Source: Desulfobacteraceae bacterium (GTDB taxonomy: Bacteria > Desulfobacterota > Desulfobacteria > Desulfobacterales > Desulfococcaceae). Taken from it: 64,000 bases of DNA. Within the stretch, counting starts at the first letter, position 1. Each line of letters starts with the position of its first letter. Below, in pieces: positions 7,131 through 15,547 of the stretch. Under the pieces are notes generated by a model. The model did not search any database, had not been told where the DNA came from, and saw only the letters and a program-made list of their open reading frames with translations. The stretch covers positions 14,534-78,533 of the forward strand of contig JAABRU010000007.1 in the NCBI GenBank assembly GCA_011390755.1, in the 5' to 3' direction. Both the position numbers and the translations under genes were made by a program.

Positions 7131-7754
7131 CTACTCTGTTTTTTTCTCTGCCCCCTGGGATATGATGAGTTTTTCCAGCACAGAATAAGGCTGCGCGCCC
7201 GAAAGGATGCGGTCTCCGGCCACAAATGCAGGCACAGCCCTGATGTCTGTCTGCCGGGAAAGCAGCCAGTCCGCATCCACAACTTCTTTATATGTTCTTT
7301 TTTCCAGAACACTCCATGCCTCCTCCTGATCCAGCCCGGCATTTCCGGCCATTTCCAGTAAAACGGGAATCCGGGCGATATTTTTTCCTTCTGCAAAATA
7401 GGCCCGGAAAACCGCAAGATGAAAGACATCTCCCTTTCCCCTGATTTCTGCCCATTTTCCCAGTTCCTGGGCTTTGCGGCTGTTAAAGGTATATTTCCGA
7501 TCTCCGAAGGGAAGTCCCTGGTCCGCGGCTGCCTGTTTCAGGCGGGCCAGCATCCGGGGGATGTCCACCAGGCGACCGGCAAAAAGTTCTTCCAGTGACA
7601 TTCCCTCCTCCGGTATCTCCGGGTGAAGGGGAAAGGCCCGCCATTGAATTTCAACATGATATTCCTGCTGCAATTTTTCACAACGCCCGGTTATGAAATA
7701 ACACCAGGGTCAGATATAATCGGAAAATATCTGAAGTTTTACACTTTCGTTCAT
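7131..7754 (-). CDS. DsbA/FrnE-like thiol:disulfide oxidoreductase with in-frame UGA (putative selenocysteine) in the redox motif
   Basis: The track ORF (7131-7673) starts at an internal TTG. Reading upstream in the same frame from ATG 7754 gives MNESVKLQIFSDYI-[TGA 7710-7712]-PWCYFITGRCEKLQQEY... This is the FSDxxCPWCY motif with the first Cys codon replaced by TGA. Confidence 0.7.
7686..7709 (-). promoter_or_regulatory. candidate SECIS-like hairpin immediately 3' of the UGA
   Basis: Minus-sense sequence is CCCUGGUGUUAUUUCAUAACCGGG. GUUAU/AUAAC and CCC/GGG can pair, but the apical loop is only about +14 from the UGA, closer than in the E. coli fdhF SECIS. Confidence 0.3.
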
Positions 7755-9107: not shown

Positions 9108-11117
9108 ATGACAAAATCCGGTATTACAGACATATTGTATTTTTTTCTCAGTATCTATAAACTGCAGTTAAATGCCCCCCGTTCTTCCGGGCAGTTTTCC
9201 CTGCTGAGCGGGGATAATTCGTCCGGGGCCGATCTGATCTATGAACTGCAGGTCATCAAAGACGACAAGCAGAGAAACCGGCGGATCAGCATCGGCCCTC
9301 TGGGAGAAGACAGCGGCAGCAAAAGCACATGCTATAAAGTGATTTACGATGATCTGCTGGTGGTAAAAATTCCGCCGGTTCCGATTACGGATTTTGAAAA
9401 ATACCTTGAACATATTCAGACAGAAAAAGAAATTGCAGACCGTATTATGCCGGATATTGAATGCATTGCCCCCAGTGTTTCCGCAATTCTCAGGAAAATT
9501 CCCGCTTTTTCCGAAACGAATATCCTCCCGGATTATGAGGAAAGATGCATCCGGAAACTCAGAGAAAGAGTCCGTTTTCAGGATTACCTCCGGATTGGAA
9601 ACAGTTTTGTTTTTTTTATGAATCTTTCCCGTTATGCTTTTCTGGGGCAGGTGGTGGACGGAATGCACTGGGCGGCAAGGGATATCCGGGATGAGCTGGA
9701 AGGAAAGACGGAAATTTTACAAAATCCTGATATTTTTGAAAATATATACGGGAAAAAATATGCGCCCCTCTATTATCCCCTGCATGAACTTTCTTTTGTC
9801 TTTGAAGAAAAACTCGCACAGCTGCAGAAAAAACACAAACTCTGCTGTCTTTTCCCTTCGGTGAAGAAAAAACAGTGGTTTCTGTCTTATCTGGCGGATA
9901 AGCACACAGAACCGGCAGAACCGCAGATGAGTCCGGAATTTGTTGCGGATCTCAACCGTCTGCTCAGAGATATTATCTCCGGAAGTTCGGCAGCCGCACT
10001 TTTCCGCCGTCTGGTGGAAAAAGGGCTGAATGAAAAAAGTTTTCAGCAGAACAAGACGCATATATCCGGCATTATCAGCAACCTGATAGATATGCTGGCC
10101 CGCCTGCGGGAAAAAGGCATTGCCATCCGGGATTTAAAACCGGATAATGTTTTTATTGCGGGTGATTCATCCCGTTTTCCCCATCTGCTGTCTTCTCCGG
10201 AAGAATACTCCATCGGTCTGATTGATTTTGAAACGGCCGTGATATACGGCAGTGCGGAAAAACTCCGCCAGCCCATGCTGGGCGGCACACCTTCCTATGC
10301 CACCCCTTCCCACATATTCAAAAATGAGCTGTTACAGGAAACCTATGAAGATCTTCCCCGGATTTTTCATCTGCAGGACTGGCAGGCGGTTATCAGCATG
10401 ATCCATATTGTGATTACCGGTGAGCATCTGGCCCGGAAAACCAGCAAACTGATGCCCGAATTTATCCGGGTAATGAAAAAATCCCTGAAAATCAAAAACA
10501 TGAAACCCCGGGAAACCTATATCGGTTTTAACCGGGTTTTCTGGAGCCGTGCCGCAGGCGAATTTATGGAGAAACTTTCACAGAATGCCGAAATTTTACA
10601 GAATGTCAGACCCAAACTTTCTGAAAAATCCCTCAGAATGCTCACGGAGGAAATATCCGAAGTGGAAAAAAATACCGGGCAGCGGATACAGAACCATATC
10701 AGAACCCAGCATTTTTTCAAAAGTCCCCAAAGCCGCTCGGAACTGATAAATGCCCCCCTGGCGGTTATCCGCAGATACCGCCGGAACTGGGAACAGGGGA
10801 CAGGTGTGCCCAATATATCCCATGCCGTCCGGGTTGCTGTTATCAAATGGCTGAAAAATTTTGAAAAAATCAAAGCGGATGCCGAAAGGAAATCCCTTTT
10901 CATCACTATGCTTTCGGAGGAAAAAAGCAGTATCTCGGCCTATGATCTGCTGGATATGATGTTCAGTGTTGTACTGTATTCCATGTATATCTCCAAATGG
11001 GGAGAACTGCGTCCGGAAACCCGGGATTTTGGGCAGGCAGAGATGAAAAAAGAAAAAACAAAGGTTTCCAGGGAAGATACCATGGCCCTGGAAAAAACAG
11101 TGGGCGGACTGCACTGA
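9108..11117 (+). CDS. atypical Ser/Thr protein kinase-like protein (669 aa)
   Basis: Motifs: N-lobe LLVVKIPP (VAIK-like Lys), catalytic loop IRDLKPDNVF (~10128-10148), DFE in place of DFG (GLIDFETAV), and GTPSYATPS (APE-like). A long C-terminal helical extension follows. Confidence 0.7.
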   Translation: MTKSGITDILYFFLSIYKLQLNAPRSSGQFSLLSGDNSSGADLIYELQVIKDDKQRNRRISIGPLGEDSGSKSTCYKVIYDDLLVVKIPPVPITDFEKYLEHIQTEKEIADRIMPDIECIAPSVSAILRKIPAFSETNILPDYEERCIRKLRERVRFQDYLRIGNSFVFFMNLSRYAFLGQVVDGMHWAARDIRDELEGKTEILQNPDIFENIYGKKYAPLYYPLHELSFVFEEKLAQLQKKHKLCCLFPSVKKKQWFLSYLADKHTEPAEPQMSPEFVADLNRLLRDIISGSSAAALFRRLVEKGLNEKSFQQNKTHISGIISNLIDMLARLREKGIAIRDLKPDNVFIAGDSSRFPHLLSSPEEYSIGLIDFETAVIYGSAEKLRQPMLGGTPSYATPSHIFKNELLQETYEDLPRIFHLQDWQAVISMIHIVITGEHLARKTSKLMPEFIRVMKKSLKIKNMKPRETYIGFNRVFWSRAAGEFMEKLSQNAEILQNVRPKLSEKSLRMLTEEISEVEKNTGQRIQNHIRTQHFFKSPQSRSELINAPLAVIRRYRRNWEQGTGVPNISHAVRVAVIKWLKNFEKIKADAERKSLFITMLSEEKSSISAYDLLDMMFSVVLYSMYISKWGELRPETRDFGQAEMKKEKTKVSREDTMALEKTVGGLH

Positions 11118-11139
11118 GGAATGCAGGAGGAATGACAGT

Positions 11140-12057
11140 GTGCTAAAACAGATTCTTCTGATTCTCGGAAAAATATTTCTGCTCTGGATCTTTTTTTCGC
11201 TTCTCTTTTTTTATGCGGGAAAATACATCCCCTTCGGGCCTGAACAGACATTTCTGACCGCTCCCTTTTCGGTTCTGTTTTTTCTTTCCCTGGCCTCCTT
11301 TCTGACGGCTTTTTTTATTATCCACGGCCAGCCGCTCCTTGCACAGCAGCACAGGCTGCGCGGTATGCTGCTGGTGCTCAGTTTTTTCTTCGGAACCGCC
11401 ATGTTTGCATTTGTGCGGGGGGGCGGAAGCAGTCACAGCATCATATATATTACGGTAACAGCCAATCTGCTGCTTTTTGCCAATCTTTTGGGAACCTGGA
11501 TTGCCGGTCCTCTGAAAAGGCCCGCGGAACTGATTCCCCTCTGTCTGGTCATGGCTTTGAGCGATATTTTCAGTGTGGCCGCGGGGCCGACGGAAAAATT
11601 CGCAGAAACCATTGCGCAGTATTACCGCTCCGGCATGAAAGGCCCTGCGCCGGTCATTGATTTTATTCTTTTTAAAATTCCGGTTCCCGGTGCGGAAAAG
11701 ATGGTTCCCCTTTTCGGTCTGGCGGACTGGGTGATTATTGCTTTTCTGGCGGCCTGTGCGGCAAAGTTCGGTTTTCATGATAATCTTGCCGGAAAAGGAT
11801 TGGGGGAGATGGCAGAAAAAAAGCGGCCGGTTTTTTATTTTCCCGCTTCCCTTGCAGGTCTTATTTTCGGGATTTTTCTGGCATGGTACAGCGGTGTGTT
11901 TCTTCCCGCGCTGCAGCTCGTTGTTATTTTTTTCCTAGCCTATATTATACCAAAATATGCTCAAATCCGAAAAATAACGGCTTCCGATCTGAAACTGATG
12001 CTGGGAACCCTGCTGATTATGGGTACATTGCTGGCAATCCGCTTTATCCTCCTGTAA
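11140..12057 (+). CDS. polytopic membrane protein resembling presenilin/SPP-type GxGD aspartyl proteases (305 aa)
   Basis: About 9 hydrophobic segments. Motifs: ALSD142 in TM5/6, FGLAD196 (GxGD-like), and FLPAL256-258 (PAL motif). Order and spacing match A22-family proteases. GTG start lies 22 nt after the kinase stop. Confidence 0.5.
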   Translation: MLKQILLILGKIFLLWIFFSLLFFYAGKYIPFGPEQTFLTAPFSVLFFLSLASFLTAFFIIHGQPLLAQQHRLRGMLLVLSFFFGTAMFAFVRGGGSSHSIIYITVTANLLLFANLLGTWIAGPLKRPAELIPLCLVMALSDIFSVAAGPTEKFAETIAQYYRSGMKGPAPVIDFILFKIPVPGAEKMVPLFGLADWVIIAFLAACAAKFGFHDNLAGKGLGEMAEKKRPVFYFPASLAGLIFGIFLAWYSGVFLPALQLVVIFFLAYIIPKYAQIRKITASDLKLMLGTLLIMGTLLAIRFILL

Positions 12058-12124: not shown

Positions 12125-12615
12125 GGAACATGAAAGCTGCACGGAGTGCGAAAAATAAGGCCGGAGGGCCGGTTTTTCGCAGACACTTTCATATAAACCG
12201 CCATGAGCTATGACTCACAGCGAAGCATGAAAGTTTCAACCCGTTCCCGGGCTCCGGCAGTGTGTGAGGCAGAGCCTCACCCTATGCGTTCCCGGGCGGA
12301 GCCCGGGAACGGGTCAGGCTGCGCGGAGTGCAAAAATTTAGGCCGGAGGGCCGGTTTTTCGCAGACACTTTCATATAAACGACCGTGATATGAAGTCACA
12401 ACGAAGCATGAAAGTCTTTTTATACCGGACGCAAAGCATCCCGCAGCCCGTTCCCGCGCGGAGCGTGGGAACGGGCTGCGGGCGGGGAGACTTTCATATA
12501 AACGACCATGACCGCAGGGTCACAACGAAGCATGAAAGTCACCGGTAATATGCAAAAACCGCTTCGCTTATTTTTTGCACTCCGGAGACTTTCATATAAA
12601 CGGCCATGATATTTC
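12125..12615. repeat. cluster of 4 tandem nested palindromic repeat units
   Basis: The conserved junction CTTTCATATAAACNNCCRTGA-N8-9-CACARCGAAGCATGAAAG recurs at ~12186, 12366, 12489 and 12585. It is separated by 45-135-nt inserts that are themselves REP-like palindromes (GGAGTGCGAAAAATAAGGCCGGAGGGCCGGTTTTTCGCAG; CCCGTTCCCGGG...CCCGGGAACGGG). Confidence 0.75.
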
Positions 12616-12680: not shown

Positions 12681-12831
12681 TGAAAGAATTATTAAAGTAT
12701 ATTGCCTTTCAGAAAATATATTTCACAGGTCTTCGCTCTGAACCGGTCTGAAGACAGCAGGGGGAATATGACTGTGAAACTGTTTTTCCGGAAACCTGTT
12801 GCTGTTAAAACATAATAAAGGAGGATTTCAA

Positions 12832-13473
12832 ATGAGTAATAAATCGTTTTCGGATACCGCCATTATTGCCTGCGGAACACTCAGCCCGGAGTTGAATTAT
12901 TTAAAAAAAGAAGGATTCCTGGATACCCATCATCTGTATTATACAAAACCGGGACTTCATCAGGACGTTCCCGAACTGGAACGTCAGCTGATAAAACGCA
13001 TCCGCAAAGCAAAGGAAAAAACAGACAGGGTTATTGTTGTCTACGGGGGAAAGTTCTGTTACGTCAATGTGGATGAACCTACGCGTACCATGCAGAATAT
13101 CATTGAAGAACAGGGGCCCGGTGTGAAAAGAATTCAGGCCAGTCACTGTATGGATATGCTGGCCGATGAGGCAGAAAGGGACAGAATCGCCCAGGAAGTT
13201 GCCGGAGGGGAAAAGGTCTGGTGGATGACACCCGGGTGGATTAAATTTCGGGAAGATGTTTTTAAAGGATGGGATAAAGGTCTGGCAAATGAGAATTTTC
13301 CCCGGCACACGGGTGGGGCTGTGGTCCTGGACGGAATTGGGTATCTTGATCAGTATATGGCTGAAAAACCGGAAGCATTTCTTGAATATTCCGATTGGAT
13401 GGGCATTCCGATACAGCCTTACCCCATAAGTCTGGACAGGTTCAAATCATTGCTTCTGGATCAGTTAAGTTAA
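12832..13473 (+). CDS. DUF1638 domain-containing protein
   Basis: MSNKSFSDTAIIACGTLSPELNYL...RVIVVYGGKFCYVN...IQASHCMDMLA resembles DUF1638. AAAGGAGG RBS lies upstream of ATG 12832. Confidence 0.6.
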   Translation: MSNKSFSDTAIIACGTLSPELNYLKKEGFLDTHHLYYTKPGLHQDVPELERQLIKRIRKAKEKTDRVIVVYGGKFCYVNVDEPTRTMQNIIEEQGPGVKRIQASHCMDMLADEAERDRIAQEVAGGEKVWWMTPGWIKFREDVFKGWDKGLANENFPRHTGGAVVLDGIGYLDQYMAEKPEAFLEYSDWMGIPIQPYPISLDRFKSLLLDQLS

Positions 13474-13600: not shown

Positions 13601-13810
13601 CCGGAAACCGGAAACCGGACACCTGACACCTGACACCTGACACCGGACACCGGAAACCTGACACCGGAAACCTGACACCGGACACCTGACACCTGACACC
13701 TGACACCTGACACCTGACACCTGACACCTGACACCTGACACCTGACACCTGACACCTGACACCTGACACCGAACACCTGACACCGAACACCTGACACCTG
13801 ACACCGAACA
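13601..13810. repeat. 30 tandem heptanucleotide repeats (CCTGACA; variants CCGGAAA, CCGGACA, CCGAACA)
   Basis: Exact 7-nt phasing was counted from 13601 to 13810, including a central run of 12 perfect CCTGACA units. This explains the three overlapping VSGVRCQ-repeat ORFs in the track. Confidence 0.95.
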
Positions 13811-13882
13811 CCTGCCCCCCGAATTTTCTTTGTTTAAAAAAATCAGCAGATTTGTCCCCTGAAAACAGCAGAAGGTGCGGAA

Positions 13883-14230
13883 TTATTCTTTCTGCTCCTG
13901 AAAAAGCCGGATAAATTTTTTTAAAACAGAAAAATTTTTCAAATCCAGACGGGCAAATTCAATCCCGGTCTGATACCAGCTGTTTTCAGACTGTGCACTT
14001 CGTACAACCTGTCCTTCAATATCCAGCAGTTCTTCCCCAATGGCAAGAGTCAGGGAAATATTCTGCCCCGGCAGAATGCTGAAATGGGTTTCCAGCAGAA
14101 TTCCGCTTTCCGATACATTCAATGTTCTGCCCATGCCTTCCATAAGGATATTGTCATTTTCATCAATGCAGACATAGGAAAGATTCAGGGAATCTACCCG
14201 CGGATTTTTCCGTTGTTCATGTGTTGCCAT
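13883..14230 (-). CDS. PilZ domain protein (c-di-GMP receptor type)
   Basis: MATHEQRKNPRV (RxxxR) and LNVSESGILL (D/NxSxxG) motifs. Start is placed at ATG 14230. Confidence 0.8.
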   Translation of the reverse strand: MATHEQRKNPRVDSLNLSYVCIDENDNILMEGMGRTLNVSESGILLETHFSILPGQNISLTLAIGEELLDIEGQVVRSAQSENSWYQTGIEFARLDLKNFSVLKKFIRLFQEQKE

Positions 14231-14377
14231 ACTTTGACTCCTGAAAATGCAGGTCGGCAAAAAAACATTCCGGGAAGATTGCAAAGGGAAAAACAGGGAT
14301 CCGGCCCGGCGCTTTTCCGCGTTTTGGCAGATTCATCTTCTTTCTGCCCGAAATTTTTTTCCGACAGTCTGTGATAT

Positions 14378-15547
14378 TTATTTTTTTTCAAGATTTTTCT
14401 TATGATAATCAGCGGCCACCCGTGTGGTTACGGTAATGTTGGTTGCAGTTGTTTCAATGAGATTCCGCAGTGCGGCAGAAAGGTTGCTGTATTCTTCCTT
14501 CAGGTTTTCGGCATTCATTTCTTCTGTTTCAATATCTTCGGAAGCAAATACAATTCCCCCGTGGGGTTCGTGGCCAATATCCAAAAAAGGACAGGGGCCG
14601 ATAAAATCTCTTTCTTTCAGATTGGCAAGGGGGATATAGCTGCCGTCACCGGTTTTCCGGATAATACATACATTCCCTTTCCGGATGCGGTAAAGTTTTT
14701 CCGGATGAACTCCCCGTTTTTTGGCCAACTGCTTTCCTTTGGTAAATTCTTTCAGATCAAAACGGCGGGAAAAAACATCCACTGTTTTTTCTGTAATTTC
14801 ATCCCGCCGTTTATCCAGACTGACAACCATATCCCGGAATTCTCTGGACTGATTCCCGAATTCATCTGCCAGTCGCTGGGAATCCAGCACACCCAGCTGC
14901 ACATCCGTTGATGCCTGTATGGTTGATTTTCTCACATTGTCTTTAAATAAAAAGCAGCTGACACCGCCGATAAAGGAACCCGCGGCCATGCGGACGATGG
15001 GAACCGGGCCTTCGGGGCCTTCCTTGATTACATCCACAATTCCTTCCAGCACGACCCATATCCAGCTGCCGTGTTTGTTTTCCTGCACGATTTTACGGTT
15101 TTTATAAAATTCCTCTTCCGCGGCCACATACATATAATCCACCAGCGGCCCTTTGATAATGGGAATTGCGGAACGGGAACCGCTGTCTTTTTTTTCATAA
15201 TCCACAGGCCCGAGTTTTTTGGTGTGACCGTCATCCACCATGCGCAGCCCGTCCAGAATAATCTCCATCCGGCTGTTGCGAATCACTTTGGGAACATTGA
15301 TCTCTTCTTCACTGAAAGCAAATTCCCCCTCTATCCATCCGAAGAGGGCATAAACCGCATCCAGACCTTTTACGGAACCGGCCCGGGCATCCATAATATT
15401 GCCTTTGGAAAAATAGATATGCCCCGGTTCACCTGTATATTTGCTCATCAGGTTCAGCACTCCGGTTCCGCCGTTGGAACCGATTAACTGCAGCACTTCC
15501 CCCAGACCTAAAAATTGCAGATTTCCGGAAAGAACAAATTTCGACAT
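14378..15547 (-). CDS. DUF4388 domain protein with cyclic-nucleotide-binding-like domains
   Basis: N-terminus LSGNLQFLGLGEVLQLIGSNGGTGVLNL...GHIYFSKGNIMDA is DUF4388-like. Two beta-barrel cNMP-like segments follow. Confidence 0.7.
   Translation of the reverse strand: MSKFVLSGNLQFLGLGEVLQLIGSNGGTGVLNLMSKYTGEPGHIYFSKGNIMDARAGSVKGLDAVYALFGWIEGEFAFSEEEINVPKVIRNSRMEIILDGLRMVDDGHTKKLGPVDYEKKDSGSRSAIPIIKGPLVDYMYVAAEEEFYKNRKIVQENKHGSWIWVVLEGIVDVIKEGPEGPVPIVRMAAGSFIGGVSCFLFKDNVRKSTIQASTDVQLGVLDSQRLADEFGNQSREFRDMVVSLDKRRDEITEKTVDVFSRRFDLKEFTKGKQLAKKRGVHPEKLYRIRKGNVCIIRKTGDGSYIPLANLKERDFIGPCPFLDIGHEPHGGIVFASEDIETEEMNAENLKEEYSNLSAALRNLIETTATNITVTTRVAADYHKKNLEKK

Follow-up and report, generated by a model that had tools for sequence, protein, structure and literature searches.

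A probable distant bacterial homologue of presenilin and signal peptide peptidase encoded next to an atypical kinase gene in a Desulfobacteraceae genome

The DNA analysed here, a stretch of 64,000 nucleotides from a Desulfobacteraceae bacterium (assembly GCA_011390755.1, contig JAABRU010000007.1), is referred to as the window, and all positions are counted from its first letter. Between positions 9108 and 12057 it holds two genes on the same strand, the first for a kinase-like protein of 669 residues and the second for a polytopic membrane protein of 305 residues. The membrane protein belongs to an unannotated family and is probably a distant bacterial homologue of the presenilin/signal peptide peptidase (SPP) intramembrane aspartyl proteases (MEROPS A22, GxGD-type), next to which the kinase gene lies only incidentally. 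The locus is organized as follows, with transmembrane abbreviated as TM and open reading frame as ORF.

9108-11117, plus strand: kinase-like ORF of 669 aa, ATG to TGA, product predicted cytoplasmic (ORF with a Pkinase match)
11118-11139, plus strand: intergenic spacer of 22 nt, carrying GGAGG at 11126-11130 (sequence)
11140-12057, plus strand: membrane-protein ORF of 305 aa, nine TM segments, GTG to TAA; presenilin/SPP-like candidate intramembrane aspartyl protease of an unannotated family

Two same-strand ORFs separated by 22 nt are exactly what an earlier, sequence-only reading of this DNA had reported, and the motifs that it named all translate at the positions it gave: LSD142, GLAD193-196 and PAL256-258 in the membrane protein, RDLKPDN341-347 and DFE373-375 in the kinase-like protein. 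The GGAGG in the spacer, the ribosome-binding site of the second gene, lies nine nt ahead of the GTG start. No terminator-like site was found in the 22-nt spacer between the two genes, which are therefore likely to be co-transcribed in this genome.

A word-indexed search gives 17 close homologues of the membrane protein, none of them named; they come from Desulfococcaceae, Desulfonema and the like. When 1.84 billion cluster representatives were searched exhaustively with a profile, the family grew to 148 members at E <= 1e-3, each member being a cluster at 50% identity. Three stretches of the protein stand out when these sequences are compared, and they are the ones expected of an A22 protease.

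11563-11565, plus strand: D142, first candidate catalytic Asp, in helix 128-147 (TM5), motif (A/S)D(I/L)(F/W)SVxxGP; invariant in 93 sequences
11716-11727, plus strand: G193-L-A-D196, a GxGD variant at the start of helix 194-210 (TM6); G193 and D196 invariant, family consensus aligned on GLGD385 of presenilin-1 (PS1)
11905-11913, plus strand: P256-A257-L258 (PAL), at the start of helix 257-269 (TM8); aligned with PALP433-436 of PS1

Across 16 close homologues D142, G193, D196 and P256-A257-L258 do not vary. An alignment of 93 diverse members, with a mean column identity of 19%, retains only six invariant columns, namely D142, S145, G149, G193, D196 and P256. Because four of these six are D142, G193, D196 and P256, the motif triad is the most conserved feature of the family and not a product of chance. 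The C-terminal PAL motif of A22 enzymes is thus present in the window protein, and D142 and D196 occupy consecutive hydrophobic segments that form adjacent helices, as in A22 enzymes. Spacing from GxxD to PAL ranges from 47 to 63 residues in the family. Distant members carry canonical G[IVFA]GD and PALP motifs together with a first-Asp motif of the form xD(I/L)(W/F)SVxxGP, and this GxGD-bearing branch is joined to the clade of the window protein by hhalign with a probability of 99.9% (E 3.8e-35). A word-indexed search with the profile of the GxGD branch returned only unannotated "hypothetical" proteins and no Pfam-annotated presenilin or SPP, and cluster look-ups for the distant branch gave no protein names.

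The link to presenilin and SPP emerges from family profiles, of which three were compared: one of the close clade (A1), one of the 93 sequences including the window protein (A2) and one of the GxGD-bearing branch (A3). The nine best matches of A3 among all PDB sequences are PS1, presenilin-2 (PS2) and SPPL2a (E 1.8e-5 to 0.04), seven of them at or below 3e-4, with best values of 1.8e-5 for the PS1 C-terminal fragment, 3e-5 for PS2 and 2.9e-4 for SPPL2a. The A3 alignment pairs "LGvGDlvF" with LGLGDFIF and "PALPf" with PALPI; the PS1 sequence variants 8x52 and 6idf in the PDB score lower over the same aligned region. Significant HMMER alignment covers about 55-70 residues, from GxGD to PAL. The first-Asp motif is collinear with "SVYDLVAVLcpKGP" of PS1 in a sub-threshold HMMER segment of the A3 search, and its downstream part, D-(L/I)-x-(S/A)-V-x-x-G-P, resembles PS1. 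Profile A2 also reaches the PS1 C-terminal fragment (3.6e-4), and A1 yielded one irrelevant weak match only among PDB sequences. When the 93 members were searched singly against Pfam, Presenilin was the sole family matched by more than two of them (10 members, best 4e-6).

Predicted structures lead to the same proteins: PS1 and SPPL2a are the sole confident Foldseek matches of two independent models. For the AlphaFold (AF2) model of the window protein (predicted local distance difference test, pLDDT, 88.8; predicted template modelling score, pTM, 0.88), the nine best Foldseek matches in the PDB are presenilin-1 chains, with probabilities of 0.82-0.97, E-values of 0.02-0.2 and TM-scores of 0.33-0.37. 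An independent AlphaFold model of a distant 275-aa member (pLDDT 91.6) has PS1 or SPPL2a as its 13 best matches (probability 0.84-1.0, E from 5.5e-3, TM-score 0.34-0.44), after which the probability of the next match falls to 0.08. In the window-protein model, a beta-hairpin (177-180 and 189-193) directly precedes D196. This hairpin resembles the substrate-pairing strand of substrate-bound gamma-secretase structures.

Nine hydrophobic segments are obtained from hydropathy and nine helices from the AlphaFold model, in agreement with the count of about nine given in the sequence-only reading; the adjacency of the two Asp-bearing helices, which it had named as a check, is likewise borne out by the model (helix 128-147 and helix 194-210). 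Counts of lysine and arginine favour an N-in/C-out arrangement in 89 of the 93 members, with 10.2 such residues in odd loops versus 1.7 in short even loops. By the positive-inside rule, the loop between the two Asp residues and the PAL motif are predicted to lie on the periplasmic side, in the orientation of SPP. The topology of SPP is opposite to that of presenilin, and SPP cleaves type II substrates (PMC7768045). Given this predicted SPP-like orientation, the substrates of the window protein would be type-II (N-in) helices such as signal peptides and signal anchors.

Several observations count against a presenilin/SPP-type protease and have to be weighed with the above. The window protein itself has no meaningful match in Pfam or NCBIfam and none to any A22 model (PF01080, PF04258, PF06550), so that the check suggested in the sequence-only reading, taken literally as a significant match of this protein to the A22 Pfam models, fails, and every match of a family member to PF01080 falls below the gathering score of that model. 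The motifs are not canonical: in place of YD, the window protein has S141-D142, and across the family the residue ahead of this Asp is A, V or S and never Tyr; in place of GxGD, it has G193-L-A195-D196, and its own clade has GxAD, GxSD or GxTD. With E-values of 5.5e-3 to 0.2, the Foldseek matches are marginal, and the TM-scores (0.33-0.44) stay below 0.5. Structures of the archaeal enzyme PSH were retrieved by neither the sequence search nor the fold search of the PDB. Among the nine TM segments, the Asp residues are on TM5 and TM6 and not on TM6 and TM7, and PAL lies ahead of TM8, which implies one helix fewer at the N-terminus and one more at the C-terminus of the predicted structure than in canonical A22 proteins. 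Finally, no conserved neighbour hinting at a substrate is found among 59 related loci. The presenilin/SPP-like assignment is supported by remote homology, through the matches of A3 to PS1, PS2 and SPPL2a, and by fold similarity, but not by direct matches to curated A22 models. Taken together, remote homology and fold similarity make homology to the A22 superfamily highly probable, and the odds that the window protein is an active protease are even to slightly favourable.

If it is active, D142 in TM5 and D196 at the start of TM6 would form a di-aspartyl active site within the bilayer, which the PAL turn ahead of TM8 would help to shape. An unwound strand of the substrate would pair with the beta-hairpin before D196, just as happens with the beta-2 strand of presenilin. 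The protein would reside in the inner membrane with nine helices, N-in and C-out, its inter-Asp loop periplasmic and its core oriented as in SPP and not as in presenilin. Expected substrates would include leftover signal peptides and signal-anchor proteins. The Ala of GLAD would be the counterpart of the Gly-to-Ala change that slows catalysis in A22 enzymes. In presenilin, SPPL2b and the archaeal PSH MCMJR1, such a change beside the catalytic Asp slows catalysis and does not abolish it (PMC2947513). Whether the clade and the wider family are active stand-alone bacterial SPP-type proteases, with a natural GxAD/GxSD site, Asp-bearing helices shifted by one TM segment, an SPP-like orientation and a role as signal-peptide or type-II-anchor peptidases, is an evenly balanced proposition.

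Among characterized A22 systems, SPP and its SPPL relatives (MEROPS A22B, PF04258; human SPPL2a structures 9k92 and 9k93) are among the closest. They too have nine helices, with one Asp on each of two neighbouring helices. The second Asp belongs to a G-x-(G)-D motif where its helix begins, and PAL comes ahead of the penultimate or last helix of the core; the predicted orientation of the core, with an exoplasmic inter-Asp loop, is the same. SPPL2a gives the best TM-score (0.44) along with a significant profile match (2.9e-4), and, as for SPP, no partner subunits are indicated for the window protein. Unlike SPP/SPPL proteins, the window protein has no PF04258 match, carries SD and not YD and GLAD and not GLGD, and has its Asp helices at TM5 and TM6 with an extra C-terminal helix, which places its N-terminus, by prediction, inside and not outside. 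It also differs in its bacterial host and in having neither a PA domain nor an endoplasmic reticulum (ER)-retention signal.

Presenilin-1 and presenilin-2, the catalytic subunits of gamma-secretase (MEROPS A22A, PF01080), supply the best sequence matches of the family profile, and PS1 the top Foldseek matches for both models; the beta-strand immediately before the second Asp is a further likeness between PS1 and the window protein. In contrast to presenilin, the window protein has the opposite predicted orientation, about 305 residues versus 467, one fewer N-terminal helix and no long cytosolic loop, with no sign of endoproteolysis and no nicastrin, APH-1 or PEN-2 partners.

The archaeal PSH and MCMJR1 enzymes (PF06550) are, like the window protein, stand-alone prokaryotic proteins of about 300 residues with two Asp residues, which are essential in PSH. 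A variant PAL motif (PPL) is tolerated in MCMJR1, and the slowing of PSH by G219A parallels the natural Ala of the window protein. Unlike the presenilins and SPPL2a, archaeal PSH shows no detectable sequence or Foldseek match to the window family. No PF06550 match was found in this genome, and 301 genomes of the phylum contain a single one (L085:98-826, minus strand). That match is a 242-aa, AT-rich sequence with a YD motif and no GxGD, on a 2.1-kb contig of a metagenome-assembled genome (MAG) with 7% contamination, and is probably a truncated gene or foreign DNA. The control genome of Caulobacter vibrioides also produces a PF06550 signal at E <= 1, below the cut-off, which is gone at E <= 0.01; it is a hint of weakly SPP-like proteins in other lineages of bacteria.

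Of the alternatives, the one that fares best, albeit an unlikely one, is that the family has kept the presenilin fold without the protease function and employs its polar residues otherwise, as a channel, a transporter or a pseudo-protease scaffold. Such a role would fit the lack of the second Gly of GxGD and of the Tyr of YD, the shifted helix numbering and TM-scores to genuine proteases below 0.5, and the presenilin fold has reportedly been likened to that of ClC channels. It sits poorly with the pattern of conservation, however, since the residues invariant in 93 sequences of such low mean identity are those that A22 catalysis needs and almost nothing else is invariant. Moreover, the deeper branches have canonical GxGD, and Gly-to-Ala variants of real enzymes stay active.

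The upstream gene encodes a genuine, probably active protein kinase of an atypical kind. It matches Pkinase (PF00069) at 1.7e-6, although its 28.1 bits are below the gathering score of 31.7, and shows weak matches to LanL/LanKC kinase domains. Its family comprises 891 homologous clusters, most with a precomputed PF00069 assignment and many annotated as Ser/Thr kinases, and the family profile matches the kinase domains of GCN2, CDPK and LanKC (E 5e-5 to 1e-3). Invariant in 33 family members are K87, R341-D342-L343-K344-P345, N347, D373-F374-E375, a GTPxY motif and a DW motif; the candidate catalytic elements lie as follows.

9366-9368, plus strand: K87, candidate ATP-anchoring beta-3 lysine (LVVKIPP; the beta-3 assignment is tentative); invariant in 33 members
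10128-10148, plus strand: catalytic loop RDLKPDN (R341-N347), His of HRD replaced by Ile; aligned with RDLKPxN of GCN2
10224-10232, plus strand: DFE (D373-E375), in place of DFG; invariant in the family

The catalytic Lys, the Asp and Asn of the loop and the metal-binding Asp are all present (K87, D342, N347 and D373). The earlier description of a kinase-like protein with RDLKPDN and DFE is upheld, RDLKPxN and DFE being invariant in a family whose profile matches known kinases. With its closest known relatives, the PF00069 kinases and the kinase domains of class III/IV lanthionine synthetases, the protein has in common RDLKPxN, a beta-3-like Lys, the Mg-binding Asp of DFx and the GTPxY end of the activation segment. 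It departs from them in DFE instead of DFG, in the missing His of HRD, in about 200 residues inserted between the lobes and in a C-terminal extension of about 230 residues. The kinase family is a large one of Desulfobacterales; most genomes of this bacterial family have two to four matches to the kinase-like protein, and this genome has three. The two further matches here, at C121:15075-17000 and C152:1496-3433, are 39-44% identical. In three same-genus relatives a conserved ORF of about 370 aa precedes the kinase gene (two orthologue loci and one 46%-identical match); it is absent here.

The sequence-only reading had gone on to suggest that kinase and protease would make up an unusual signalling module. 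In a dedicated module of this kind the protease or its substrate would be under the control of the kinase, or the protease would free a factor acting with the kinase. The arrangement in this genome invites that view: the genes share a strand across 22 nt, the second has its own ribosome-binding site, and nothing terminator-like separates them. The order is also preserved in one metagenome contig of 97% identity, which keeps a leftward DsbA gene, rightward kinase and membrane-protein genes and DUF1638. That contig and the present genome (G000) are, however, the only places where the pair is adjacent. Three genomes of the same genus carry both genes (G001, G003, G004), with the orthologues on different contigs or far apart, and in two complete genomes (G006, G009) more than 0.5 Mb separates them. 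In the nearest named MAG, JBFXEJ01, contigs 1 and 5 carry one gene each and the neighbours differ, the kinase gene being followed by a convergent ComEC-like gene and the membrane-protein gene following a radical-SAM gene. Nucleotide similarity to same-genus relatives ends at the gene borders, which is consistent with local rearrangement.

The membrane-protein gene has a single match per genome. Of 16 other genomes in the same family 11 have it, against only 1 of 24 other families of the order. Cultured carriers of a homologue include Desulfonema limicola, D. ishimotonii and Desulfosediminicola flagellatus IMCC35005. With the close-clade alignment A1, 59 related loci totalling 514 kb were found in species genomes, almost all from Desulfobacterota (Desulfobacterales, Desulfobulbales-type genera and Desulfuromonadales), plus one Planctomycetia MAG. 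None of the 59 has a kinase homologue within 5 kb. The kinase family reaches up to three or four matches in a genome, and some genomes without the membrane protein have it too. Since the pair is adjacent only in this species and at none of the 59 loci, and is not conserved as neighbours in relatives, the signalling module is largely refuted by synteny and must be rated very improbable; no functional coupling is indicated. The idea stems from the gene order of one species and should not be carried further.

No neighbour is conserved across the 59 loci. The best candidate, and the sole recurrent neighbour found, is an FlK-type thioesterase gene together with an unknown ORF, present at six loci. 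In one example (L008:37-1184) the thioesterase and an ORF of about 150-210 aa without a Pfam match lie upstream of the membrane-protein gene on the same strand, and equivalents of this arrangement are seen at L009, L010, L011, L012, L014, L029-L032, L052 and L059. Two Desulfonema species have LUD-domain and FlK genes upstream of the membrane-protein gene, and the contexts of two distant family members are also unrelated.

Least probable of all is that the resemblance to A22 proteases arose by convergence or chance in an unrelated polytopic family, for instance one of A24 prepilin-peptidase/FlaK type: the lack of any curated match and the short span of the significant alignment would allow it, but sequence and fold searches converge independently on PS1, PS2 and SPPL2a with a sharp fall to the next matches, the first-Asp motif is collinear with that of PS1, Peptidase_A24 is not one of the listed families that members match, and the PDB matches do not include FlaK. 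The A24/FlaK assignment was accordingly rejected, there being no match in these searches and A24 enzymes not being known to have a PAL motif.

Work on presenilin-type proteases has centred on eukaryotes, PSH being the one model from archaea. The searchable literature follows the same lines, treating presenilin-type proteases from eukaryotes and archaea and, as bacterial GxGD enzymes, the unrelated-looking prepilin peptidases; no description of a bacterial presenilin/SPP-like family was found in it. If the family described here is active, a bacterial branch missed by curated models would carry the superfamily into the third domain of life and give bacterial envelope biology a fourth class of intramembrane protease. 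Structural and mechanistic studies would also gain small single-chain enzymes, among them a variant with a natural Gly-to-Ala/Ser change in the active site. Should its members prove to be SPP-type proteases, they would offer a minimal model, expressible in E. coli, for presenilin/SPP catalysis and for the G384A-type substitution.

Genes flanking the locus are listed below; none is a conserved neighbour of the kinase gene or the membrane-protein gene.

7131-7673, minus strand: DsbA-like thioredoxin gene
12799-13473, plus strand: DUF1638 gene
13883-14284, minus strand: gene for a PilZ-domain protein
14378-15547, minus strand: gene for a protein with DUF4388 and a cyclic nucleotide (cNMP)-binding domain

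Upstream of the kinase gene lies an AT-rich gap of 478 nt, and downstream of the membrane-protein gene the intergenic stretch 12125-12615 contains terminator-like hairpins on the minus strand; together the two may mark a rearrangement-prone spot. Farther downstream, positions 13614-13814 hold a heptanucleotide tandem array, (ACCTGAC) in 28.7 copies with an 88% match, which creates spurious "GVRCQVS" repeat ORFs on the minus strand.

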